This document shows positions 27,974-41,175 of a stretch of 64,000 nt of DNA, in pieces; the first letter of the stretch is position 1, and each line of letters opens with the position of its first letter. Source of the DNA: a phage; the NCBI GenBank assembly GCA_011939005.1, contig GCA_011939005.1_4858.1. One strand, written 5' to 3'. The translations under genes and the position numbers were made by a program. The notes beneath the pieces are model-generated. The model saw only the letters and a program-made list of their open reading frames with translations, was not told where the DNA came from and did no database searches.

Positions 27974-28011
27974 ACCGCCCTTCCGTTATTGGGAGGGCGG
28001 TCTCCGTTTTA
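27974..28011 (+). terminator. intra-operon hairpin / possible attenuator
   Basis: Stem accgccc/gggcggt followed by ctccgttttatt between two giant ORFs. Confidence 0.4.
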
Positions 28012-28033
28012 TTACAGATTAGGAGTGTTTGCA

Positions 28034-31000
28034 ATGCCGAGAGAAGATGCGGCGCAGTTTAACGGTACCCTCAGTACCGCTACTTACCCGAACCGTTATT
28101 CGACGGTCATTCCCGTCGAAGCACCGTTCTATCGCATCGGGTTAACGTTAACCGTTACCGATAAAACAACCGGAACCAAACGCAAGTTAATAGAAGGTCT
28201 TGATTATTTCTTAGGACATTACTTCCAGGAATTAGCCGAGGCTGAGAACGATGCAATATACGGCAGCATAATGCTGCTGAACGCCACAGAGGTAGAATAC
28301 GAGTTATTGTCGGTTGGTCGACAGTATCGCATCCCTGCTTCTGAAATCGGCAAGTATCTGGTTAAGACGGATATGAAAGACCCGCGCAACTGCGATTGGT
28401 CTGAGCTGATGAAATATCCGCCGATTATCTCGCCAATCGACCCGCCAAAAGATCTCGAAGAAGCCATCCTTCGCGATGAAATCGTAAAGGCGTTGGAAGA
28501 TATCCGTCTGGGTATTTTAGAACGTGCCCACGAACTGGATGAGGCTTTTGCGGAAGTTACTGATTTGATTTATCAGAACGGTAAAAAGGTGTTTGATGAC
28601 GAAATGTATCAACACCACCTGATTAAAAATGCACATGGTTACACCTGCGGTGACATTGGCGCTCTCCCGGTACTCGGCAAAGCCGTAGATGCGACTAAGG
28701 CATTCGGACGTACCCTGGCAGAGCTAGTGACGTTAATGTCTACCAGTGGCATCCAACAGAAACACGTTGACATGCTTCTGGATAATACCCTGGGTGATTT
28801 ACTGGGCCGTATGCGTGTTCTGAATAACGACGCGATTACGTTCCAAACAACGTCTGGTCACGTTATCAGCATGAAGGGTGAGAAGTTCATCATCACCTCG
28901 ACAAAACCGCTGGTATTAAAAGCTGACCAGGATAACAACGAACCGGGTATCGCTACGGAGTTCAGTGCTGGTCTGAACACGCTTTGGGTTCACTCGGGTA
29001 AAGCAGGTGACAAGTGGGGCGCTTATGATGCAGGTGTGCTTGCACCTGTGTATAACAGCGTGTATCTCGTTACGCCGGATATGGTTAAGATGTACTTGAC
29101 CTCGGTGAAGATACTTCCAGCAAACGCCTACTTCAAGTCCAGCGACACGTTGAAGATTTACGGCTCTGGTAAAGAAACAAACAAACTTTACATGAATGCG
29201 GAGCTGCCTGCAGCAACCACAACTGTGCAGGGTTTGTTTGCGATTACTAACCTTTCGGCGTCCGCTGCAGCATCCACAGCGATTTCCCAAAAAGCTGTTA
29301 CTGACTTGAAGAACAAACTCGACGGATATGTGGACGACACGTATACAGTCAACGGTAAAGGGTTTGTATTAGATTCAAACGGGCAGATGCATCTGACCTT
29401 AACCGCGGCAGATTTCGGTATTGAGAAGATGAACAATACCGGGCCGCTGGAGAAACCGGTTACTAATGCGTTGCGCACCGTGCTATCTGGCAAAGCGCTT
29501 ACAACGCACACCCACACCATTGCCGATCTCGATAACGTGCCGTACGCATCCACGTCTGTTACAGGTTTGGCTAAACTGTGGGATGCTATTGACACCACAA
29601 CAGATAAGATGGTTACTTCGCGTCAAGGCTTCTTGCTTGAACAGAAGATTGACACGCTGAATGACAAGATTGCTACGTTATTACCGGCGTGGACTGTCGG
29701 CGGATCATCGTACGGCAACAATAACTTCTTGCCTATACCTGTCCAGGGGAACTACGAAGGGTATACCAAAAACCAAACCTGGCAGAAAGGTTTGGCGCGT
29801 TACGAGTCTGGTAAGGTTTACTCGCTCCGTAACGGTTCTAACGGGAACCCACCAGGTGACTGGGCTATCTATTACGCCTATGCTGATGTGTCGCCAAGCA
29901 ATACGCTGGAAAATATGCAGCAGACGTCCGTACGCTATCGACCCGCTGGAATGTCGGCGTATCCTGGGGTGAATCTGGTTGCTATTGTGATTACCGGTAC
30001 CGATGCAATGATCTGCTTAGGCAGTGACGGTGCGTACTACCTGGTCATCTTCGATGGGACGATTGACCATGCAAAACATCATCGTGTTGTTAAAGTGGTG
30101 TTGGGTGATTACAAGAACGGTAATGGTGCGGGCACAGTAACGACAGCACCGTGGGCTCCAAACGCTTCTACAGACGATTTGATTGTTTGTAATGAACGTG
30201 TCTACCTGTTGCGTACGGTGCTTACCTCCGGTAACTATTTCGTGAGTATGCGTAGCATCGCACTCAACGAACTTAATCTGGGTGGCAGCAACACGTTTGT
30301 GGCGGATGCGTTAACAGGCGGGATATTAACGTCGGGTGAAAACGTTTATCTGCGACAGGGACAGAAACGTGCACCTTCCGATGCGCTCCCAGCACCAGTT
30401 ACACAGATCTACGCAGACGCGTTAGCGAAGTGGAACAATGCAACCAACTTTGTACATGGTCCTGAGTGTAATCACGCGATTGGTGTTGATGGGCTGAGCT
30501 TTCGTGTTGGTTTAACTCCAACGGTTTGGTTTGCTTCTACTACAGGGCAAACTATTAACTTTAAACAATGGGTGTCAAGCTTTGTTGTCGACTGTAGCGC
30601 ATTAACGGTAACGCTGGAAGGGGCTGATCGATTCCCTATTGTGGCTGATCTTACCACGGTTCGTTATAACGGTGGTACTGAGATTGGGATTCCAAGCCGG
30701 AAGTGGGGCGAAGGTCAAGCTAATAACCGAACCTTTGCAACATCGCAAGACAAGTATATCGTTTCGCAGGGACATGCAGGCGATCGCGACCTAATGCCAA
30801 TTGTCACGATTACCACGTTAGACGACGGTGTGAGTTGGTACGAGTACCTGTCGTGCGACTACAACTTCACTGCCAGAAGTTTTAGTGCGGTAATGTTAAA
30901 CCAAGGTCGTGGTTCTATCTACGAGCTAGGTATGGCGTATCCACTGACTCTGGGAGCGAATTCCAGACTTATCTGGTTGTCACAGCCACGTTCCCGTTTG

Positions 31001-33217
31001 GCAATTGAAGTTGAGTTTGATCCGAACACCACTTACTCAGGTAAGGTGGGGTATGGCCCAACTAACAATCGTCGTGTAGTAGATTCTATCACGTATGAGA
31101 ATCTGTCGCAGATGTGCCACATTGTTACACCGGCGTCGCCTGGTACAGAGTTAAACGGCTGGTATTGCACAGGGCCAGAAACATTCCCTTACCACAACGT
31201 TTCTGGCACTTTCACGATTCATGCCGATCGGTTGACGCTGTCACAGGCCGAATGGGATAAGATGAAGCAGATGATCATCGACGGTGCACCGGCAGGCGCT
31301 GCGAATGGTTATGCTTCGGAATTTATCCTTGCCGCAAATAACGCAGGAAAGGCATTGTTCTCCGTTTGGTTCATCGGCATTGGTACGGCCACACCGCTCA
31401 CGTTAGCACAAGTAGCATGTACGCGTACTGTGAACAACGTTAACGTGTTGGATATCTACTACTTTACACTGAAACCAACAATCAGCAACGGGCAGGTAAC
31501 ATTCCCCGCAGCGATATTGGCTTTGTTTGACTTCTATAACAACCTCGACTATAGCTTGAACTATGCTACGTTGGGTGAGATAACGGGAGGAAAAACACGC
31601 CGGCCGGGACAACCTACCTTGGTGTCAGTAGATGGTACTCAGTTCGGGTTGTATCTTCCACACACGTTAACCTTGCGCCAAATTGGCGACTTGGGTGCGC
31701 TTAACTACGCTGTTGGTCTTACGCTGTCTAATGGTACTTGGACGCGTTCTTCTGCTCCACACGGCGTTGGACGTATGGCACCGTCACACACTCCAGTCAG
31801 TCCAGCTTATCTGGCACATCGCGATCAAGTGATGTTACACAACTCATCTCTCGACTACGTCTATTGTGGTGGTATCGCAACGCCGTCGAGAGATTTTGTC
31901 GCGGCTCCTAATTTTAGTGGCCCGACTGAATCGGTTGTCATTGCTGGTGTGGAAACAGCTGAAGGTTGGCTGGTATATGTGACTGAGGAAGTTGACCTGC
32001 GTTTCGGCTCGAGCACTTATAAGCTGCCTACGTGGTATATTGACCTCAGCGCAGCATTTCCAACAAACCATCAGAACCGGACATTCTACCTGCACGCCAA
32101 GGTAGAAAATGGTACACCGAAGTACGTAATGGACGTGGTTCAACATCCAGACACTGAAACGGAACTCTACATCGGGTATGTTAAAACGGGCTCGTCGCGA
32201 GTCGTCGAGACTAACGTCGAACATGCTAAGCGATTGGGGGCGGTGAAACAACTGTTGGAACATGCGGCGGTTGAGAATAAGCATGATGTGGAGGTGGGAA
32301 GGGATGCGGCAACGGGCAGACTGGCACCATTGCGTAAAGAAGCGATGGGTCCTTTGTCTATCGATGCTACGAAAGGCTATCTGGATAGTCAGTTGCTTTA
32401 TACCGTATCTGACGCACAGCGTCGCGGTAAACCGATGGTCTCCAAACGTTTCGAAGGCTTGAAAACTTTGCCGGCGTTTACTCAGGCAAACAAGTCGGGG
32501 GCGTTTTGGAAACATCCTACAACAATTGCGACGGTAACGGCCGATGAGAACGGTGAAGCGGCATCGTTGGGAATGGAGTGGGTGGGTATCCCTACGCCTG
32601 CTTTCTCTCCGACCTCAGGAATGATGATAGTGGTGATACAAAGTAAATTCGTCGTCCCAGGTACACCGGGAGTAGAAACGACCTTTAATGTCAACATCGC
32701 CCCATGGGATACGGTAGATAGATTTTTCTACAACGTCGAGGCGGAAGGTAAGGATGTTAACATTGAAGAAAATCCAGAAGTGCTAATGCCGACACCACAT
32801 ACCGTGTATCACAAACAGCATTCTCTGCCCGCAGGCGTGCCATGTACGTTTACTTTCGCTGCTGTGTTGAGTTCCCCAGCGCTTGAGATGGCCAACCAGC
32901 ATATTTGCTCTTGGCTTTTCACGGACGCGGGGGGACTACCAATCACCACCGATCTTTCGGATAGTAAGATTCAAATCTTACCATTGGGGGGAGAGACCTA
33001 CGGCACACCAGTTGTTTTGAACAGCCGTAGCTACACGTTTGTGGATGTGGCGGGTGCAATTCCGGTTGTTACCACGGGCGCTCAGGGTTTATTCCCACCA
33101 CCGATCGTGGCGTGGGATGGCGATGATCTTACGTTAACGATTGCGCACGATTGGGTGAACGAGAGAGGATGGCAACAGCCTGATATTATCCAGGTCAATC
33201 TTATGTTCCGTACCTAA
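28034..33217 (+). CDS. giant virion structural protein (about 1728 aa; tail fibre/adhesin-like, putative)
   Basis: ATG at 28034 with AGGAGTG RBS preferred over track start 27989, which lies in the hairpin. Confidence 0.8.
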   Translation: MPREDAAQFNGTLSTATYPNRYSTVIPVEAPFYRIGLTLTVTDKTTGTKRKLIEGLDYFLGHYFQELAEAENDAIYGSIMLLNATEVEYELLSVGRQYRIPASEIGKYLVKTDMKDPRNCDWSELMKYPPIISPIDPPKDLEEAILRDEIVKALEDIRLGILERAHELDEAFAEVTDLIYQNGKKVFDDEMYQHHLIKNAHGYTCGDIGALPVLGKAVDATKAFGRTLAELVTLMSTSGIQQKHVDMLLDNTLGDLLGRMRVLNNDAITFQTTSGHVISMKGEKFIITSTKPLVLKADQDNNEPGIATEFSAGLNTLWVHSGKAGDKWGAYDAGVLAPVYNSVYLVTPDMVKMYLTSVKILPANAYFKSSDTLKIYGSGKETNKLYMNAELPAATTTVQGLFAITNLSASAAASTAISQKAVTDLKNKLDGYVDDTYTVNGKGFVLDSNGQMHLTLTAADFGIEKMNNTGPLEKPVTNALRTVLSGKALTTHTHTIADLDNVPYASTSVTGLAKLWDAIDTTTDKMVTSRQGFLLEQKIDTLNDKIATLLPAWTVGGSSYGNNNFLPIPVQGNYEGYTKNQTWQKGLARYESGKVYSLRNGSNGNPPGDWAIYYAYADVSPSNTLENMQQTSVRYRPAGMSAYPGVNLVAIVITGTDAMICLGSDGAYYLVIFDGTIDHAKHHRVVKVVLGDYKNGNGAGTVTTAPWAPNASTDDLIVCNERVYLLRTVLTSGNYFVSMRSIALNELNLGGSNTFVADALTGGILTSGENVYLRQGQKRAPSDALPAPVTQIYADALAKWNNATNFVHGPECNHAIGVDGLSFRVGLTPTVWFASTTGQTINFKQWVSSFVVDCSALTVTLEGADRFPIVADLTTVRYNGGTEIGIPSRKWGEGQANNRTFATSQDKYIVSQGHAGDRDLMPIVTITTLDDGVSWYEYLSCDYNFTARSFSAVMLNQGRGSIYELGMAYPLTLGANSRLIWLSQPRSRLAIEVEFDPNTTYSGKVGYGPTNNRRVVDSITYENLSQMCHIVTPASPGTELNGWYCTGPETFPYHNVSGTFTIHADRLTLSQAEWDKMKQMIIDGAPAGAANGYASEFILAANNAGKALFSVWFIGIGTATPLTLAQVACTRTVNNVNVLDIYYFTLKPTISNGQVTFPAAILALFDFYNNLDYSLNYATLGEITGGKTRRPGQPTLVSVDGTQFGLYLPHTLTLRQIGDLGALNYAVGLTLSNGTWTRSSAPHGVGRMAPSHTPVSPAYLAHRDQVMLHNSSLDYVYCGGIATPSRDFVAAPNFSGPTESVVIAGVETAEGWLVYVTEEVDLRFGSSTYKLPTWYIDLSAAFPTNHQNRTFYLHAKVENGTPKYVMDVVQHPDTETELYIGYVKTGSSRVVETNVEHAKRLGAVKQLLEHAAVENKHDVEVGRDAATGRLAPLRKEAMGPLSIDATKGYLDSQLLYTVSDAQRRGKPMVSKRFEGLKTLPAFTQANKSGAFWKHPTTIATVTADENGEAASLGMEWVGIPTPAFSPTSGMMIVVIQSKFVVPGTPGVETTFNVNIAPWDTVDRFFYNVEAEGKDVNIEENPEVLMPTPHTVYHKQHSLPAGVPCTFTFAAVLSSPALEMANQHICSWLFTDAGGLPITTDLSDSKIQILPLGGETYGTPVVLNSRSYTFVDVAGAIPVVTTGAQGLFPPPIVAWDGDDLTLTIAHDWVNERGWQQPDIIQVNLMFRT

Positions 33218-33264
33218 CAGATAGCGCTATGGGGCAAGGAAGCCCCAATCAAAGGAGTTTGGCA

Positions 33265-34467
33265 ATGGCCGAAATCATTTATCAGTACCCGCTCGACCTT
33301 ACCGGGACATTAACGTCGAACGCCGTTACGCGGCGTATTACGTTAGGTTCTGGTAAAGTTAACCGGGCTTTTGCATTTCCTGACGGAGCTTTCTACGCGG
33401 ATACCTTCCGCTTGGCGGCTGCGAATAAACCAGGTGTCTACCCGTACAAACGCGGCACAGACTACGAACTGATTTTTGCACATACTGCATATCAGAAAAT
33501 GACCAAGAACCGCGAAGTGGTCATGGGTGTGGTGGTAACTAACTCGGCCATTCCTACTGATATCGAAGTCTCTGCGCAAGTCGTTGGTGGTTTTCAGTCC
33601 GCGAACGTCGAAGGCATCCGACAAGCGATTGCGTCGTTGAAAATTGAAGACCGCGTGGTGGACTTCAAGGATCTTCGAAACGTACCCGATACGTTCCCGT
33701 CCGCACCGACGTATAAAGACCTTGGCGATATCTACGGTTTTGAGTATATCATTACCGTACTCGCGGGGATTAAAGATGCGATTAACTCCGGCTCTGCAGT
33801 ACAGCTGGAAGAAATTAAAGGTATTCTGGGTGGTCTGAAAAACGACTTCCTCGACGCCTTAAATGCCCACATCAACGCCGAAGGTAACGTACACAATCTC
33901 GACATTCATCAGGTTAATGGCCTGACGGAGACGGAGATTCGTGCCCTGATTCAAAGTGTACAGACTGCCATTGACGCCACCATCAAAGATATCGGCGACT
34001 TAAGAGCAGCAGACACAGCGTTGGGGCAACGCATCGATGCAATTGTGGCTTCGTTAGCCGCGTGGAACGACCAGCTTAACGTGGTTGCTCAAAATTACCA
34101 GAAAATGTCGTTAGCATTAGCTAACCTTAATTCTCTGGTGTTGCAATTACAGAAGATGGTTAACGATCTTCAGTCTGCACTGAATAAAACAAATCAGCGC
34201 GTCACGGATCTTGAGAATCAGGGCAAAGACTTCCAACAGCAAATTGATAACCTGCAAGGACAAATCAACAGTCTTAAAACTCAGGTTGTAAATAACACCA
34301 ACGCAATTTCGCAGGCAAACCAGAATCTGGCGAACCATGCGGCTGCGGATAACCCACACCCGAATTACCTCCATAAACAGTATGGCGGTGTTGTGCAGGC
34401 TGCTGTTCACGTCAACAACAACCTCACCTCGCGCGACGATGTTCAAGCTGAAGCGGGTACTAAGTAA
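33265..34467 (+). CDS. coiled-coil fibre-like protein (401 aa)
   Basis: ATG at 33265 with AAAGGAG RBS; C-terminal half is a long heptad-like Q/N/L-rich coiled coil. Confidence 0.75.
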   Translation: MAEIIYQYPLDLTGTLTSNAVTRRITLGSGKVNRAFAFPDGAFYADTFRLAAANKPGVYPYKRGTDYELIFAHTAYQKMTKNREVVMGVVVTNSAIPTDIEVSAQVVGGFQSANVEGIRQAIASLKIEDRVVDFKDLRNVPDTFPSAPTYKDLGDIYGFEYIITVLAGIKDAINSGSAVQLEEIKGILGGLKNDFLDALNAHINAEGNVHNLDIHQVNGLTETEIRALIQSVQTAIDATIKDIGDLRAADTALGQRIDAIVASLAAWNDQLNVVAQNYQKMSLALANLNSLVLQLQKMVNDLQSALNKTNQRVTDLENQGKDFQQQIDNLQGQINSLKTQVVNNTNAISQANQNLANHAAADNPHPNYLHKQYGGVVQAAVHVNNNLTSRDDVQAEAGTK

Positions 34468-34477
34468 CTTGTTTACG

Positions 34478-34521
34478 AGCCGGACTATGTTTATGGACAT
34501 AGTCCGCTCGTTCTACTTTTT
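34478..34521 (+). terminator. imperfect hairpin plus short T-run (weak terminator or processing site)
   Basis: gagccggactatg / catagtccgctc stem with one bulge, then cttttt, immediately before the RBS of the first Cys-rich ORF. Confidence 0.35.
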
Positions 34522-34532
34522 AAGGAAGCGTA

Positions 34533-34925
34533 ATGGCGATATCTATTAAAGACGTCAGAAACCGCGTCCAGATAGTCGAAGCTAACATGGCGACAGGCCC
34601 CCGCGTCGACGCGCAAGTGGCCTCTAAAGCCCATAATGCGGCAGACCGATTTGGGGGTTGGACGAAAACACAGCTAGATTGCGGAGGGACATGTTCTTGG
34701 ACGTGCTCTAACGGTTGCTCGCATGGCTGTTCGAGCTGTTCAGGAAGCTGTTCTGCTTCTTGTATCGGTAGCTGTTCTTCGACGTGTGGCGGTAACTGTT
34801 CTGGTTGCTCTGGTTGTTCTGGTGGTTGCAGTAGTAGCTGTACCGGTAACTGCACAGGTGGTTGCGGTGGCTCTTGTTCTTCCAATTGTTCCGGAGCCTG
34901 CTCCGGTGGCTGTTCAGGTCGCTAA
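34533..34925 (+). CDS. Cys/Ser/Gly-rich small protein 1 (130 aa): leader-like N-terminus plus about 16 CxxxC tetrad repeats; candidate radical-SAM substrate
   Basis: ATG with AAGGAAG RBS; core DCGGTCSWTCSNGCSHGCSSCSGSCSASC...; paralogous to the next two ORFs. Confidence 0.65.
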   Translation: MAISIKDVRNRVQIVEANMATGPRVDAQVASKAHNAADRFGGWTKTQLDCGGTCSWTCSNGCSHGCSSCSGSCSASCIGSCSSTCGGNCSGCSGCSGGCSSSCTGNCTGGCGGSCSSNCSGACSGGCSGR

Positions 34926-34935
34926 GGGGGATTAA

Positions 34936-35340
34936 ATGGCAATTGGATTAAAAGAACTGAATAACCGATTAAACACGATCGATGCAAACGCTCTAAAGAA
35001 TACCACGAATGTGCAAAACTACATTCGCAATAAAGCTACGAATAACGCTGACTTGTTCGCAGGTCAAGGTCGTTCGCACTACGACTGTGGTGGTACGTGT
35101 TCTTTTAGCTGCTCAAGTTGCTCTGGCGGGTGTACTGGGTCTGCGACAGGTGGTTGTGGGTCGACTTGTTCGGCAAACTGTGTATCAGGCTGTAGCAGCA
35201 GCTGCACGGGCTGTAGCTCTTCGTGCTCTGGTGGTTGTAGCGGCACGTGCACAGGCAGCTGTTCTGGGGGTTGTGGTAAATCCTGCTCCGCAAACTGCTC
35301 AGGTGCGTGCTCTGGTGGTTGTTCAGGTCCTAACTCCTAA
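34936..35340 (+). CDS. Cys/Ser/Gly-rich small protein 2 (134 aa), paralog of 34533..34925
   Basis: ATG with AAGGGGGA RBS; same leader-like N-terminus and core start DCGGTCSFSCSSCSGGC. Confidence 0.65.
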   Translation: MAIGLKELNNRLNTIDANALKNTTNVQNYIRNKATNNADLFAGQGRSHYDCGGTCSFSCSSCSGGCTGSATGGCGSTCSANCVSGCSSSCTGCSSSCSGGCSGTCTGSCSGGCGKSCSANCSGACSGGCSGPNS

Positions 35341-35355
35341 CTGACGGAGGCTTAT

Positions 35356-35562
35356 GTGATCAGTCTCAAGACTATTCGAAACCGTCTCGTTACGGCAGAA
35401 GGTTACATTACAACCGCACAGGCAAACAACTATATCGCTAACCAGGGCACCGTGTCGACCACAAATAACCTGGCTGGCTTACCGCTTTCTCACTATAACT
35501 GTAATGGTGGGTGTAGCTGGTCCTGCAGCGGAAGCTGTAGCCGTGGAGCGGGGAATCGATAA
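35356..35562 (+). CDS. Cys/Ser/Gly-rich small protein 3 (68 aa, short core), paralog
   Basis: GTG start with GGAGG RBS; conserved leader and core start NCNGGCSWSCSGSCS. Confidence 0.5.
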   Translation: MISLKTIRNRLVTAEGYITTAQANNYIANQGTVSTTNNLAGLPLSHYNCNGGCSWSCSGSCSRGAGNR

Positions 35563-35584: not shown

Positions 35585-36472
35585 ATGAAAAACGATTTGC
35601 ATCTTGCGTATAAAACCACATTCAACCACCCGCTGCATCTATCTTCCCCAGATTCAGTGCGTGCACATCTCGCTGACAAAGTCAGACTGATTGCACAGAT
35701 TCCTGGTGAGTGGCCAAAGGTTCGTGGTCGCTTCTTGACCGACAAGAAGAACTACACCGTAGAAAATACGTTTAAGATCCGTGATATGGTTGCAGAGGCC
35801 ATCGTTATCTTTAACGGCGATGGTAACTCTCGCGGCGTGTTGGTTGACGGTAAGTATTTCTTCAGTGAAGGGATTCTGAACAACAGTGTCGATTTAGAAC
35901 TGATGTTTACACCGTTTGACGAACTTGAAGCAAAACCGATGGCGCGCCGTTGGTGGAGTCCGGACTATCTGGGCTCGTTCCCTTACTACTTTGTACTGGT
36001 ACCTGCCGATACGGAAACGTATTTCGACACCGAACCATACATCGATATCGAGGGGTATAAAGAACTCGGCATCACCCGTTTAGCGGACATGATGGCGTAT
36101 AGCTATAAGTTCGTGTGGGATAAAAAGCGTTCTGTCTGGTATGCGCTGACTGACGATTTTGAAATCACCAAGCGTATTCGTAAGCCGTGGATGCAACACC
36201 TGGTTCAAACTCGATATGGGGATTACCCGGCGACAGAAGCGGATTTGAGTAAGCTGGTAAGTTTCCTCTTAACGAAGGTGGATTTAACGAAAGAAGAAGC
36301 AGAAGCTGTTTCTGAGATTCGTGGTCGTTCGGTAACGTTGGCCGATTTGAAACGTCTGAACGAAAGACACGCCGACCTGAACAAAATTTTAGCTGCCTAT
36401 CACGACCCGATGTTACTGGTGCCTGGCGCTAACGTAGACGAAGATCCTTTATTCGCCATTGATTATATTTAA
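35585..36472 (+). CDS. hypothetical protein (295 aa) in radical-SAM cluster
   Basis: ATG with GGAG RBS; no recognisable motif. Confidence 0.65.
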   Translation: MKNDLHLAYKTTFNHPLHLSSPDSVRAHLADKVRLIAQIPGEWPKVRGRFLTDKKNYTVENTFKIRDMVAEAIVIFNGDGNSRGVLVDGKYFFSEGILNNSVDLELMFTPFDELEAKPMARRWWSPDYLGSFPYYFVLVPADTETYFDTEPYIDIEGYKELGITRLADMMAYSYKFVWDKKRSVWYALTDDFEITKRIRKPWMQHLVQTRYGDYPATEADLSKLVSFLLTKVDLTKEEAEAVSEIRGRSVTLADLKRLNERHADLNKILAAYHDPMLLVPGANVDEDPLFAIDYI

Positions 36473-36494
36473 AAATATACTGGAGCAACCTGCA

Positions 36495-37409
36495 ATGACA
36501 GATCAAGTAGAATCCAGGATCTCGTCTGAACTGTACGACAAACCGTCAATTCTGTCGGTTGTCGCAACTTCTAAGTGTAACTTAGACTGTAGCTTCTGTG
36601 GAGGGGCTTATTACATGGATAGAGAAGATACTTCTCGTGAGTTTCAACGTGAAGAGATTCTCTCGATTTTAGAGAAGAATCCGGATATCGGTGAGATTCA
36701 TTGGACGGGCGGTGAGCCGCTGTTAGCGCAGCGCAAGATTGAAGACTTCGTGAACGAGTTGAAGGAGTCTCATCCGAACCTCCGTCATCACATGTACACC
36801 AACGGTTTAAAGATGCGTAAATCACATCTGCCGTTGCTGAAACAGTTCGACCTTATCTTTGTGTCCATTGACGGCTACAAGAAGTCGGAACGTCCGTTTA
36901 TGAACTTTGTAAACGGTGGTAATCACGAAGCGCTGGAAGTGCTGTACGAGCTGGACAACTATTACACCTGGGGTGTGATGACGCGTGACCAGTTAGGTGA
37001 TAAACGCTGGTACGAAGATTTCATCGAGCTGCACCGAGCAATCTATCATTACCGTCCAGGTGGTATGTCGTTGCTGTTTGATGCGATGATGCCGAAACCG
37101 TTATCGCCAGACCACGTCATGAACTTCATGTACGGGTATTGGAAAATACTCGACAATATCGAACGCCTTAACATGCAGAACGATTCTGAATGTGGGCTTG
37201 CGATCAGTAAAATGTTCGATACCGAGTGCAACACGTGCAGTGAAGTGCTGTGGCTTAACGCCGACGGTACGCAGGAGCAAATTCAGAACGCCCCAGAGAT
37301 ATTGGAAGTCGGCTGTAATCGCCTGGCGCGTTCTATCGGCGTTGATGCGTATAACTACATCAACCGTGTAATTTCTGCTAAGCGTAAACGGGCGGCGAAC
37401 AATGAGTAA
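36495..37409 (+). CDS. radical SAM enzyme (305 aa)
   Basis: CNLDCSFC (CxxxCxxC) near N-terminus, GGEPLL and YTNGL motifs, additional C-terminal Cys (ECNTCSEV...GCN); ATG at 36495 with GGAG RBS. Confidence 0.8.
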   Translation: MTDQVESRISSELYDKPSILSVVATSKCNLDCSFCGGAYYMDREDTSREFQREEILSILEKNPDIGEIHWTGGEPLLAQRKIEDFVNELKESHPNLRHHMYTNGLKMRKSHLPLLKQFDLIFVSIDGYKKSERPFMNFVNGGNHEALEVLYELDNYYTWGVMTRDQLGDKRWYEDFIELHRAIYHYRPGGMSLLFDAMMPKPLSPDHVMNFMYGYWKILDNIERLNMQNDSECGLAISKMFDTECNTCSEVLWLNADGTQEQIQNAPEILEVGCNRLARSIGVDAYNYINRVISAKRKRAANNE

Positions 37410-38730
37410 TAGCGAACAGCAAATCCAGTACACACCACGCACGTATCAGGTTGTGACTAACCTGTCATGTAACCTGGACTGCGAATACTGCTACGAGCGT
37501 AAATATCCACGCAATAACAAAGTAGCTGACGTGATTGATTTTATCCACGCTTGCTTCGAGCGCGATAAAGATATCCCGAACGTTGAAGTCATCATCGATA
37601 TCATCGGTGGTGAGCCGTTCATGCAGCCTAAACTTCTTTTGGCGGCCTTTGAAACCGCAGAGAAGTTATGCGCAGAACACAATCGCCCGTATATGTTCAG
37701 TATCTCCACGAACGGTACACTTCTGGACCGTCCGCTGAACAAAGAAATTATCGAGCGCTGGAAAGACAAACTGTCTATTGGGGTCTCCATCGATGGTTTA
37801 CCTGAAGTCCATGACAAATATCGTATCTTTACCACGACGCGTGAAGGGTCGTACGAAGCTGCGGTACGTGGTTACAATTATCTGAAGAGTGTTGGCATCG
37901 CTGAACTGGGCGTAAAGGCGACGTTTACGATCGATACATTGCCGCACTATGCCGCCAGCATGAAATCGTTAATTGACATGTCCGGCGGTGGTACCATTTC
38001 TGGTAACGTAACGTACGAAGATATCCTACCGCGCCATATGGCGTTGGATATCGCGAACCAGATGATGGACGTGATGGACTACTGGATTGAGAAGGGTCTG
38101 CACACCAACCCGCGTAACACGATTACACACATCATCCCGGATGGCCTGAACTTTATGGCAACTTGGGACCCGGATTGGCGTGACAAACTCTTACATGACG
38201 ACTCTGTTCGTCTCGACCCAGAACGCCTGAAACCGTACTGCGGTACGTTGACGCACATGACCTGTCTCGGCTTTGATCGCAAGATTTACGGTTGTAACCG
38301 TTTCATGTCCACGGTAACTTCCCGTTCTGCTGTAGCAGAACTGGTCGGTCGTGAGTTTGTGAGCCTGGACGGTGGTAAGCTGTTAGAAGAGATTCAAACG
38401 CAGTACACCAACTACCCAGAAACCTGTTTAGGGTGTCCGATGAAACACAGTTGCGGTAGCTGCGCGGCAGCATCGTACGAAAACGGTGAAGGTACACTGG
38501 AAGACCGTAAAGCGTATCATGCCGAGCGTCGTCAGTGTGGTTGGACTACTGCGAAGCTGATGGCGGCAGAATATTGGTATCAGAAAACTGGTACGACCCG
38601 CGCATCAGATTTGCATGATAAATCCATGTGCTATTGTTCACGTTGTGTACGCCAACGTGCTGAAGCAGAAAAATTACAAAACGGAGCCCAGAATGAAGTC
38701 AATACTGATTCACAATTTTACGAAGCGTAA
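37402..38730 (+). CDS. radical SAM enzyme with SPASM-like C-terminal Cys cluster (442 aa)
   Basis: CNLDCEYC, GGEPF, STNGTLL motifs; C-terminal CLGCPMKHSCGSCAAASY and CYCSRC; overlaps previous gene by 8 nt. Confidence 0.85.
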   Translation: MSNSEQQIQYTPRTYQVVTNLSCNLDCEYCYERKYPRNNKVADVIDFIHACFERDKDIPNVEVIIDIIGGEPFMQPKLLLAAFETAEKLCAEHNRPYMFSISTNGTLLDRPLNKEIIERWKDKLSIGVSIDGLPEVHDKYRIFTTTREGSYEAAVRGYNYLKSVGIAELGVKATFTIDTLPHYAASMKSLIDMSGGGTISGNVTYEDILPRHMALDIANQMMDVMDYWIEKGLHTNPRNTITHIIPDGLNFMATWDPDWRDKLLHDDSVRLDPERLKPYCGTLTHMTCLGFDRKIYGCNRFMSTVTSRSAVAELVGREFVSLDGGKLLEEIQTQYTNYPETCLGCPMKHSCGSCAAASYENGEGTLEDRKAYHAERRQCGWTTAKLMAAEYWYQKTGTTRASDLHDKSMCYCSRCVRQRAEAEKLQNGAQNEVNTDSQFYEA

Positions 38731-39259
38731 ACTGCACTTGGTCGATCGCTTCCTGCGCAAAAGCAAGCTGTACAATGTGCACGCAATTGTGGCAGGGGAA
38801 GACTTCACTGATGAAATCCAAAGCCTGTTGATTAAATACGGGCTGAATGTGATGATCCCGGTCTACTGCGTTGAGAAAGGACACGAGTCTGTCGCAGAAA
38901 TCGAAAAGCGCAATCCTGGCTTTGAGAAGCGATTGCTCGCATACCCACGCCACAAAATCGAACTGCTACGTCATTCCATCGATGAAGCCAGTCCTGAAAG
39001 TTTAGTGGCTTTGGGCTTGTCTTTCCCGCGGATGCGTATTCGTAACTTACGCTCCAATAATCCGGTCGACGCGTATTACACAGAGCGTCAAATCTTTGAA
39101 GAACATCTGCTCCCGCAGTTGGAAGAAGAAGAGCAACACAACATTTCGTTGTTGTGGGCCGGTAACCTCGATCAGGACTTCCAGATGCTGGACTTCGGTT
39201 TGTTGTTAGAACTTGGCCTGATTGAGGAGGACGAATGTCTGTTACTGACAAAAGCTTAA
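38693..39259 (+). CDS. hypothetical protein (189 aa) in radical-SAM cluster
   Basis: ATG at 38693 with ACGGAG RBS preferred over track start 38615. Confidence 0.5.
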   Translation: MKSILIHNFTKRKLHLVDRFLRKSKLYNVHAIVAGEDFTDEIQSLLIKYGLNVMIPVYCVEKGHESVAEIEKRNPGFEKRLLAYPRHKIELLRHSIDEASPESLVALGLSFPRMRIRNLRSNNPVDAYYTERQIFEEHLLPQLEEEEQHNISLLWAGNLDQDFQMLDFGLLLELGLIEEDECLLLTKA

Positions 39260-39906
39260 CGAACGAAGAGATCCGCGCCCGTTATTTCCAGCGCAATTTG
39301 CCGATTGACCGACACGGCAACTTCATGGAACGTATCGGTGCAGAGGATCAAGGCCGTACAGGCTTTTGCGCTCTGCTCCATTATCATCTCATCGAAGGGA
39401 TGTCTGATAAAGAAGCCCTGGCACGCATGAAGCTGTATGAGATGTCGGAGATTGAAGCTAACTTCACATTGAAACGCACGAAAGAGTTTATTGCTAATGT
39501 GCTGGAGATTGACCTCGACGAAATTCGCGGGAATCTAAAATCTACCGCACGTTACATTTACGAAGACGTGCAGAAGATGCTGTTGGAACTCGACCACCGC
39601 TACGAAGATGAGCGCCATGGTTATATCGAGTTTGAAGGTAGTCACTTTCAAGCCGATGAATCGTCGCGTACCATCCTCGGTCAATACATTCAGGCAGATA
39701 CCGCACCAGAATACTGGCTCGATACGCTGAATACTAAGCACAGTCCGTTTACAGTAGACCAATGTAAAGCGTTGTTGGGCGCTATTGTTGCACGCGACCA
39801 AGTGTTGCACTCAGCAATGGCAGATAACAAACGCCAAATCCGTGAGTTAGCTGAAAAGCGCGATTACACTGGATTAAAAACATTGTCCGAGTCACTCGGC
39901 ATGTAA
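39235..39906 (+). CDS. hypothetical protein (223 aa) in radical-SAM cluster
   Basis: ATG with perfect GAGGAGG RBS; followed by terminator. Confidence 0.65.
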   Translation: MSVTDKSLTNEEIRARYFQRNLPIDRHGNFMERIGAEDQGRTGFCALLHYHLIEGMSDKEALARMKLYEMSEIEANFTLKRTKEFIANVLEIDLDEIRGNLKSTARYIYEDVQKMLLELDHRYEDERHGYIEFEGSHFQADESSRTILGQYIQADTAPEYWLDTLNTKHSPFTVDQCKALLGAIVARDQVLHSAMADNKRQIRELAEKRDYTGLKTLSESLGM

Positions 39907-39908
39907 GC

Positions 39909-39965
39909 AAAGAAAATAAAGGCCCTACCTCCCCGAAGGGAGGTAGGTACCTTTTATTTATTTCT
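39909..39965. terminator. bidirectional rho-independent terminator
   Basis: Hairpin ccctacctcccc-gaa-gggaggtagg flanked by A-run and T-run; closes the plus-strand block. Confidence 0.7.
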
Positions 39966-39987: not shown

Positions 39988-40515
39988 TTAAACGAATCCG
40001 TCCAGTTCACCGTTGGTGGTACTCAGGTCAGTTTTAACGATTGGCTGCGTTACAGTATAAACTGCAAGGCTGGCAGGCTGGTATTTAATGTGGCCTTCTT
40101 TCACCTTAACAGTGATGATTTTCTCACCACTGTCGCCGTCCTCGCGTGTAATGGTGAGTTCAGACAATGCAAACGCATCTTCCGTTTTACCGGCAGCAAT
40201 TAGATCTGCGTTGACAAAAGCAAGCACTTCTTCATCGGTATCCCATTCTGCCTGGTCAGCGGTAACTGCTTTCGCACCGATGATGTTCAATGAATCGAGG
40301 CGGGTATAATGCAGCTCTTTCTCGCCAGTAAAGTTAGCGGATTCCGCGGTGGCAGTGATGGTGAGTTTGGAGTTGCGATGGTCTCCAGAATCTGCTGGTG
40401 AATAGTCAGCAACAGCGCCGAATGTAACGTCAGCAGAAGTTAACGGACTAGACAGTCCGCTGTTTGCAGCATTAAACAGCGCAACGAGTTGGTCTTTTGC
40501 AGAGATGACTGCCAT
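39988..40515 (-). CDS. short member of the shared-N-terminal-domain family (175 aa), C-terminus ...TNGELDGFV
   Basis: ATG at 40515 with AAGGAAA RBS; N-terminus aligns with the tandem paralogs further downstream. Confidence 0.6.
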   Translation of the reverse strand: MAVISAKDQLVALFNAANSGLSSPLTSADVTFGAVADYSPADSGDHRNSKLTITATAESANFTGEKELHYTRLDSLNIIGAKAVTADQAEWDTDEEVLAFVNADLIAAGKTEDAFALSELTITREDGDSGEKIITVKVKEGHIKYQPASLAVYTVTQPIVKTDLSTTNGELDGFV

Positions 40516-40639
40516 GGTTGTTTCCTTATAGTAGGTTTGTGGTGCATACCAAATCATTCTAAAAAATACATAGTGGGGTTAATATGACAGTAAAGTTGGC
40601 TGTTAAACGAGAAAGTTTTTACCACTGAAAGGATACCTT

Positions 40640-41131: not shown

Positions 41132-41175
41132 TGCTTACCCACTCCCGTAAGGGGAGTGGGTAAGGGCTTTATTTA
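41121..41175. terminator. rho-independent terminator (bidirectional)
   Basis: Hairpin cttacccactccc-gtaa-ggggagtgggtaag with flanking A-run and T-run. Confidence 0.65.

Follow-up and report, generated by a model that had tools for sequence, protein, structure and literature searches.

Cysteine-ladder proteins of phages, linked to radical-SAM enzymes and possibly to tail fibres

A 64,000-nucleotide stretch of a SPN3US-like jumbo phage (contig GCA_011939005.1_4858.1; hereafter the window) contains three small consecutive open reading frames, two of which end in about 20 evenly spaced cysteines. These frames are mostly unannotated and lie next to radical-SAM genes. We asked whether they are genuine genes, whether their linkage to the enzymes holds across phages, and whether their products are better understood as free peptides or as structural proteins.

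Three paralogous genes with regularly spaced cysteines

All three ORFs are present on the + strand. ORF1 (34533-34925) encodes 130 aa with 21 Cys, ORF2 (34936-35340) encodes 134 aa with 20 Cys, in 21 slots of which one is Ala, and ORF3 (35356-35562) encodes 68 aa with 4 Cys. ORF1 and ORF2 start with ATG and ORF3 with GTG, and each is preceded by a Shine-Dalgarno (SD) sequence (AGGAAG, GGGGGA and GGAGG, respectively). The preliminary description correctly recognized the three as paralogs that share the junction D/N-C-G/N-G-T/G-C-S-W/F-S/T-C-S. However, the first Cys lies at residues 50, 51 and 49, so that the N-terminal part is about 49 aa rather than 45, there are about 20 repeats rather than about 16, and the periodicity is not strict as had been proposed. 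The gaps between cysteines are 3333 2 33333 22 33333333 in ORF1 and 33 2 3 7 3333 2 333333333 in ORF2. The tetrad consensus is C-[S/T]-G-x, with S/T at +1 in 78% and G at +2 in 58%. Across six frames of the whole window, the only runs matching (C-x2-3)x5-C are ORF1 and ORF2.

Several overlapping ORFs are open in other frames and on the other strand, and public records annotate the wrong frame or strand, or nothing: in SPN3US, ORF1 is not annotated, and gp166 is annotated in the +1 frame over ORF2. This raised the possibility that the Cys frames are merely a by-product of a GC-rich trinucleotide-like repeat. This explanation is refuted by comparison between phages, in which differences fall at codon position 3 (for example, 14/7/70 for ORF1, window against SPAsTU) and pN/pS is 0.05-0.18 in the Cys frame but above about 1 in both shifted frames. 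The trio is conserved in Seoulvirus, Machinavirus, Erskinevirus, Derbicusvirus and Wellingtonvirus, where ORF1 always has exactly 21 Cys, ORF2 has 20-23 and ORF3 has 2-4. At saturating synonymous divergence, Cys columns are 98-100% conserved, against 73-76% for other core columns. ORF3, which had been suggested to be a diverging copy, is not decaying, since it is under purifying selection (pN/pS 0.08-0.15) and in relatives carries variable globular C-terminal domains after the Cys module.

All three ORFs fall in phrog_6085, of unknown function (E 1.5e-40, 3e-41 and 3e-24). The peptides gave no Pfam hit, although the Pfam copy searched apparently lacks PF27846, because a protein with a precomputed PF27846 hit also scored nothing. 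A search with the ORF profile found only SPN3US-like phages plus one 213-kb contig, and a reverse search of viral contigs with a degenerate DNA pattern for the junction returned mostly simple-repeat noise in other frames, being usable only for the few true positives. An AF2 model of ORF1 predicted a helix at residues 5-21 but gave no confident fold for the unmodified Cys core (pLDDT 35-46).

Genomic linkage to radical-SAM enzymes

The three genes head a tight operon of overlapping or near-abutting genes on the + strand. A stable hairpin with a U-rich tail (34475-34511; -24.1 kcal/mol, z -4.35, 0 of 200 shuffles fold as well) lies between the stop of the upstream gp167-like gene and the ORF1 SD, and may be an attenuator or an mRNA-end structure. 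A fusion or read-through from gp167 was rejected, given the TAA stop, the 65-nt spacer with this hairpin, and the SD of ORF1 itself. ORF3 is followed by a gp165-like accessory protein (35585-36472, 295 aa), which co-occurs with the Cys proteins and the radical-SAM pair in unrelated phages. A confident model of this protein shows no known fold; fold searches found nothing beyond its own ortholog, and no RRE-like fold was seen. Next come a small radical-SAM enzyme (gp164-like; 36495-37409, 304 aa from ATG 36495; PF04055, E 1e-15), with its own SD, a CX3CX2C motif at 36576-36599 and conserved C245 and C274, and a radical-SAM/SPASM peptide maturase (gp163-like; 37402-38730, 442 aa; PF04055, E 1e-14). 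The operon continues with a gp162-like protein of unknown function that is specific to this lineage (38693-39259, about 188 aa; phrog_7988, E 8e-87, aligned from residue 27 of the 214-aa ORF). The last gene encodes a DUF4376 protein (39235-39906, 223 aa; PF14301, E 5e-9), whose domain gives weak hits to tail proteins (phrog_2837 'tail protein', E 1e-3), and a bidirectional terminator-like hairpin (39924-39947; 10 bp with 7 GC pairs, and T runs on both strands) closes the operon.

The assignment of the larger enzyme as a SPASM-type maturase, made in the preliminary description, is supported. C23, C27 and C30 are present along with C280, C288, C298, C342, C345, C351, C354 and C379, which are invariant or nearly so in 16 homologs. 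Its best family matches are the curated CXXX-repeat maturase family TIGR04115 (125.6 bits) and PapB, the freyrasin enzyme (113.6 bits, E 1e-32), and its closest solved structure is the thioether-forming CteB (5wgg, E 3e-10). These scores are nevertheless far below the respective cutoffs of 350 and 340 bits, whereas control L017 and the gut-phage member L015 pass that of TIGR04115 (625 and 385 bits). The resemblance to freyrasin, a ranthipeptide with six CX3D thioether rings that had been invoked for the regular spacing, extends to a repeated Cys motif with three residues between the partners, but the cores here contain no Asp or Glu acceptor, there are about 20 repeats, and the setting is a structural phage context. 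Likewise, CteB acts on a Cys-rich substrate (SCIFF, thermocellin), but gp163 has no N-terminal extension before its CX3CX2C motif at residue 23, and the presumed substrate is much longer and periodic.

Notably, a Cys-run ORF was found in 77 of 80 viral loci holding a homolog of the SPASM enzyme. There are 99 such ORFs, all on the enzyme's strand and all within 3.5 kb upstream or 3.9 kb downstream, and none occurs elsewhere in 1.43 Mb. Conversely, starting from Cys-run proteins, 9 of 10 contexts examined have an adjacent radical-SAM gene; one divergent Cys-run protein (L232) has none within 7 kb. The preliminary description would have been contradicted by homologs without linked radical-SAM genes, and the 77 of 80 loci speak against such a lack of linkage. 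An alternative is that the ladder is an unmodified structural domain, held together by metal ions or by disulfides formed after lysis, with the neighboring enzymes serving an unrelated function. The exception of L232 is consistent with this view, and some trimeric fibre tips are probably stabilized by metal ions bound to periodic ligand-type residues in the distal part of the fibre, such as the His-x-His iron sites of T4 gp37, albeit without modifying enzymes. We consider this alternative very unlikely, given the near-universal pairing across very different phages and gene orders and the curation of the homologous bacterial pairing as a target and maturase system.

That bacterial system, the CXXX-repeat radical-SAM target system (NCBIfam TIGR04114-04119, Pfam PF27846), means that the pairing of Cys repeats with radical-SAM enzymes is already curated in silico, although we found no chemistry for it in the searched literature. 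A profile of the phage ORFs finds bacterial TIGR04117-type targets at E 1e-10, and the junction L-D-C-x-G-x-C-S-W-x-C is identical between the phage ORFs and bacterial targets such as the protein designated P0190. For the target protein with tandem C-x-x-x repeats (TIGR04114 repeat, cutoff 20 bits; TIGR04117, cutoff 50), ORF1, ORF2 and ORF3 score 18.9, 17.1 and 13.7 bits, all just below the cutoff. The accessory families TIGR04119 and TIGR04116 gave no reported hit among the nine proteins of the cassette and its upstream neighbor that were scanned, and gp164 shows no similarity by BLASTP to the TIGR04119 protein of L017 (E 1.2). The second radical-SAM enzyme and the gp165-like protein stand in their place.

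Tail-fibre context of the cysteine ladder

The N-terminal part, previously read as a leader, is better read as a tail-fibre stub, from which tryptic peptides would include VQIVEANMATGPR, VDAQVASK and FGGWTK. It is homologous to the segment that precedes the Cys ladder in tail-fibre proteins of 120-570 aa, where the same junction (NAxxLxGxxxxxY-x-C-x-G-x-CSW-x-C) is found. The ladder with this junction ends a 302-aa fibre-repeat protein in a Deferribacter contig, downstream of a GpJ-like tail protein; a 568-aa protein next to a T4 gp13-like gene; a 271-aa protein with a Phage_tail_fib N-terminal domain (24.2 bits, cutoff 23); and a 213-aa protein that follows the T7 tail-fibre N-terminal domain gene in a T7-like phage. 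In gut phages, the upstream neighbor is a collagen-like tail fibre (phrog_5073, E 7e-86). Cys runs occur at C-terminal, internal or N-terminal positions in tail-type proteins of up to 1025 aa, and the variable globular domains of ORF3 relatives represent the modularity expected of receptor-binding proteins. One further hit of the stub profile, a 1061-aa RTX-like repeat protein, was rejected as a false positive.

The genomic position in the window is consistent with this reading. Immediately upstream lies a gp167-like coiled-coil virion structural protein (33229-34467, +), preceded by a gp168-like tail protein (27989-33217, +), and the genes are placed between these and a tail assembly chaperone. 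SPN3US gp167 and gp168 are tail proteins, and gp168 is similar to phiKZ gp131, which lies at the baseplate periphery and fibres (PMC5105663). That study does not mention the genes described here, most of which are absent from the annotation, and the location of their products in the virion is inferred.

These observations bear on the possibility, suggested by the comparison with ranthipeptides in the preliminary description, that ORF1-3 are precursors of free RiPP natural products, cross-linked in the core, cleaved from a leader, and released at lysis as a toxin, signal or metal binder. A short N-terminal region with a repetitive core next to SPASM maturases is typical of RiPPs, and bacterial homologs with the same junction (LDCNGSCSWGC) are exported peptides of 97-103 aa with twin-arginine leaders, encoded in a curated CXXX cassette that has its own TatA and TatC. 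The phage cassette, however, has no protease, exporter or immunity gene, and no twin-arginine leader, TatA or TatC. Furthermore, the Cys count, which is fixed across genera as described above for ORF1, is unusual for diversifying RiPP cores. Together with the fibre homology and the location in the tail-fibre module, this makes a free peptide possible but unlikely.

Possible maturation of the ladder and its implications

We consider it somewhat more likely than not that ORF1-3 are small structural proteins of the baseplate and tail-fibre apparatus, each with an N-terminal helix-plus-fibre stub followed by a Cys ladder that is cross-linked in the cytoplasm by the co-transcribed enzymes. Disulfides cannot form in the reducing host cytoplasm, where gp163, gp164 and the gp165-like protein would act on the ladder. 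The most likely reaction joins each Cys sulfur to a carbon of a nearby residue, giving thioether links as in ranthipeptides and sactipeptides. This would turn an unfoldable low-complexity tail into a covalently stapled, redox-inert and protease-resistant rod of fixed length. Both the identity of the ladder as the substrate and the chemistry are inferred, and there is no direct evidence that the proteins are modified. A precedent for stapling of a protein that stays part of a larger assembly is QhpD, which probably installs Cys thioether links in QhpC of quinohemoprotein amine dehydrogenase and whose family appears among the hits (TIGR03906, E 4e-15), although the acceptors there are probably Asp and Glu, the links few, and the product an enzyme subunit rather than a virion fibre.

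SPASM enzymes also make C-C and C-O links, epimers and formylglycine, and thioether formation is thus only the most economical guess. The ladder may instead be matured by conversion of Cys or Ser to formylglycine (as in anSME), by formation of dehydro-residues, epimerization or C-C links, or may act as a scaffold for a metal or Fe-S cofactor loaded by the enzymes. In line with this, anSME is among the PDB matches of both enzymes, two different radical-SAM enzymes plus a protein with no known fold imply more than one step, Ser or Thr after each Cys is the most conserved non-Cys position, and bacterial relatives use Tat, the route for folded or cofactor-bearing proteins. Nevertheless, the nearest families and the nearest solved structure (TIGR04115, PapB and CteB) are thioether formers or are presumed to be, and the anSME motif C/S-x-P/A-x-R is absent by direct reading of the sequence, so that we regard other chemistries as doubtful.

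More tentatively, phages from very different lineages, including SPN3US-like jumbo phages, T7-like podophages, abundant gut phages and a Deferribacter prophage-like region, may use radical-SAM enzymes to install a ladder of covalent cross-links in a cysteine-repeat segment of their tail fibres or other virion proteins. This would be RiPP-type maturation applied to a virion structural protein, and would give a cytoplasm-compatible substitute for disulfides. The three SPN3US-type paralogs might assemble in register, since ORF1 and ORF2 keep 21 matching slots.

If true, this would add an enzymatic, radical-based covalent cross-linking step to phage tail-fibre assembly, of which we found no report in the searched literature. 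It would correct the annotation of about 60 jumbo-phage genomes, in which three conserved genes are missing or placed in the wrong frame, and thioether-stapled fibre segments of fixed length could also be of interest for engineering stable receptor-binding proteins. It would give the curated but chemically uncharacterized CXXX-repeat/radical-SAM family a tractable model, because SPN3US has amber-mutant genetics and grows on Salmonella, and it would explain why pairs of radical-SAM genes sit in the tail modules of many phages.

Genomic context and coding evidence for the three Cys-rich ORFs

The region is 98% identical to Salmonella phage SPN3US and its relatives, which are jumbo myoviruses of about 240 kb in the genus Seoulvirus. 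The Cys-rich ORFs and their neighboring genes lie between the tail and baseplate genes gp168 and gp167 and genes for a tail assembly chaperone and endolysin. SPN3US gp168 is a tail protein similar to phiKZ gp131, which sits at the baseplate periphery and fibres (PMC5105663). We confirmed three ORFs on the + strand, ORF1 at 34533-34925 (130 aa, 21 Cys), ORF2 at 34936-35340 (134 aa, 20 Cys) and ORF3 at 35356-35562 (68 aa, GTG start, 4 Cys), each following a Shine-Dalgarno (SD) site. The three share an N-terminal part of about 49 aa and the junction D/N-C-x-G-x-C-S-W/F-x-C-S. Although the preliminary description regarded the tetrad periodicity as strict, the spacing is mostly, but not strictly, C-x3-C: ORF1 contains three C-x2-C steps, and ORF2 contains two, plus one gap of 7 where a Cys slot is Ala. 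The tetrad consensus is C-[S/T]-G-x, and the cores have no Asp or Glu.

Other frames and the opposite strand are also open. Public annotation is wrong over the whole stretch 34533-35562: SPN3US gp166 (35009-35344) is the +1 frame of ORF2, ORF1 and ORF3 are unannotated, and Erwinia and Cronobacter phage records place opposite-strand or shifted ORFs here; only the 68-69-aa ORF3 is usually called correctly. Comparison between phages settled the frame, since differences concentrate at the third codon position of the Cys frame (for example 14/7/70), with pN/pS of 0.05-0.18 in this frame but about 1 to 11 in the shifted frames. The alternative that these ORFs are non-coding repeat DNA is thereby refuted. 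The trio is present in five genera, Seoulvirus, Machinavirus, Erskinevirus, Derbicusvirus and Wellingtonvirus, where ORF1 always has exactly 21 Cys, ORF2 has 20-23 and ORF3 has 2-4. Cys columns are 98-100% conserved even at synonymous divergence of 0.4-0.7, and all three ORFs belong to phrog_6085, whose function is unknown. A 165-aa protein (P0117) from a 4,964-nt contig is a variant of ORF2 that shifts frame near its 3′ end and reads on through the ORF3 region, which is either a sequencing error in the repeat or a natural indel variant. Several records of Salmonella phages SPFM5-SPFM20 match this region only in 12-17 short pieces with disrupted radical-SAM (rSAM) genes, suggesting error-rich assemblies rather than biology.

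An operon encoding two radical-SAM enzymes and its linkage to Cys ladders

ORF1-3 are followed without real gaps by five genes, encoding a 295-aa gp165-like protein (35585-36472), a small rSAM enzyme (36495-37409), a 442-aa rSAM enzyme (37402-38730), a protein of about 188 aa and a DUF4376 protein. The gp165-like protein gave a confident model (pLDDT 90, pTM 0.85) with no detectable structural relative in the PDB or BFVD, and may represent a new fold dedicated to this system. The small rSAM gene most likely starts at ATG 36495, preceded by the SD GGAG at 36481-36484. The SPN3US annotation, by contrast, starts at the equivalent of 36614, downstream of the CX3CX2C codons (36576-36599), and therefore cuts off the cluster motif; CR5 and one metagenomic gene call have the same problem. 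The 442-aa enzyme has CX3CX2C and a full set of conserved SPASM cysteines. Its best families are TIGR04115, the "radical SAM peptide maturase, CXXX-repeat target family" (125.6 bits, cutoff 350), and PapB (113.6 bits), and its closest solved structure is the thioether-forming CteB. A stable hairpin at 34475-34511 (-24.1 kcal/mol, z -4.35), followed by a U-rich stretch, lies between the gp167 stop and the ORF1 ribosome-binding site, and may be an attenuator or an mRNA-end structure that sets the ratio of gp167 to the Cys proteins. Two strong bidirectional terminator-like hairpins were found at 39924-39947 and 41134-41164, the first of which closes the operon where it meets the convergent gene at 39988-40557.

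To assess the link between Cys ladders and these enzymes, we retrieved 80 viral loci encoding homologs of the SPASM enzyme, down to 23% identity, and scanned all six frames for runs of at least six Cys spaced by 2-3 residues. At least one such ORF was present in 77 of the 80 loci. Of the 99 ORFs in total, every one is on the enzyme's strand, with 83 within 3.5 kb upstream (median 994 nt) and 16 within 3.9 kb downstream, and none lies anywhere else in 1.43 Mb. The exceptions were two copies of one divergent locus and one contig end; among these exceptions, one rSAM homolog (31% identity; loci L032 and L033, IMG/VR contig of 279 kb) has no Cys-run ORF within 10 kb. Starting instead from Cys-run proteins identified by a profile search, 9 of 10 contexts examined have an adjacent rSAM, whereas one divergent protein on a 414-kb contig (locus L232, 7001-7654) has none within 7 kb. 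The preliminary description had named homology to a known unmodified structural family without linked rSAM genes as evidence against its reading, and this condition is therefore not fulfilled. We consider it very unlikely that the ladder is an unmodified metal or disulfide domain accompanied by unrelated rSAMs.

Cys-run proteins in other phages and in bacteria

Elsewhere, the Cys-run proteins are mostly tail or fibre-type proteins with the ladder at one end. A 302-aa fibre-repeat protein in a Deferribacter contig lies downstream of a GpJ-like tail protein and ends "...KATNADQLGGQAGSYYRCSDCSWTCSSSC...". A 568-aa protein sits beside a T4 gp13-like gene in a 213-kb phage, a 271-aa protein carries a Phage_tail_fib N-terminal domain, and a 213-aa protein follows the T7 tail-fibre N-terminal-domain gene in a T7-like phage. 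Gut-phage proteins of 200-370 aa have up to 64 Cys and lie after a collagen-like tail fibre gene, and proteins of 937 and 1025 aa have internal or C-terminal ladders. Some phages have a different flavor of ladder (L097, 5702-9619; L073, 11327-14281), for example C-x2-C/C-x3-C runs rich in Gln, Asp, Glu and Thr, such as "CQTCDSCQTACYTGQC" repeated about 15 times, or proteins with up to 87 Cys, and these too lie next to the rSAM homolog. The segment before the ladder (N-A/D-x-x-L-x-G-x5-Y) and the CSW junction match those of ORF1-3. Relatives of ORF3 in SPN3US-like contigs (L019, 7001-7633; proteins P0137, P0151, P0163, P0178 and P0191) continue after the 4-Cys module into different globular domains of 70-150 aa, and one of these occupies the same genomic position as ORF3, which is the pattern expected of exchangeable receptor-binding tips. 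The gp165-like protein and the small rSAM travel with the ladder and the SPASM enzyme in several of these unrelated phages, in varying gene order.

The profile of the phage ORFs also detected bacterial peptides of 97-103 aa with twin-arginine leaders and the same junction (LDCNGSCSWGC). Their locus (L017, 5001-8809) is the curated CXXX cassette, with TIGR04115 at 625 bits, TIGR04119 at 226 bits, TIGR04116 at 105 bits, a TIGR04117-type target and its own TatA and TatC. This cassette sits next to an integrase and portal-like genes, so it may itself be on a mobile element. The pairing of Cys-repeat target and rSAM is thus already recognized in silico, although we could find no chemistry or phage connection for it in the searchable literature. 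In the version described here, the SPASM enzyme falls below the TIGR04115 cutoff; TIGR04119 and TIGR04116 gave no reported hit among the gene-cluster proteins scanned, and a second rSAM and the gp165-like protein stand in their place. No protease or exporter is present, and we regard a free RiPP released at lysis as unlikely.

Proposed maturation of a structural module

The fixed Cys number, the near-obligate linkage to SPASM rSAMs and the homology of the ORFs to fibre ends and to curated rSAM targets led us to propose that the ladder is the substrate of the neighboring enzymes, which would join Cys sulfur to carbon atoms of neighboring residues. The substrate assignment, the chemistry and the location of the products in the virion are inferred. 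Ser or Thr three residues upstream of each Cys is the most conserved candidate acceptor, and the links could be within a chain or between chains. The unmodified core has no confident predicted fold, while the N-terminal helix does, which fits a segment that needs modification or assembly. We consider a structural module matured by the rSAMs somewhat more likely than not, whereas thioethers specifically remain a tentative assignment, at slightly less than even likelihood; the same module matured by different radical chemistry or by cofactor loading appears unlikely but possible. The preliminary interpretation, which likened the regular spacing to the motifs of multiply crosslinked ranthipeptides such as freyrasin, is partly supported. 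In the proposed model, the product would be a rigid, redox-inert rod that can be made in the reducing cytoplasm before lysis. What is new here is a probable phage-structural form of a system that was known in silico but is chemically uncharacterized, and this form is widespread and testable in a genetically tractable jumbo phage.
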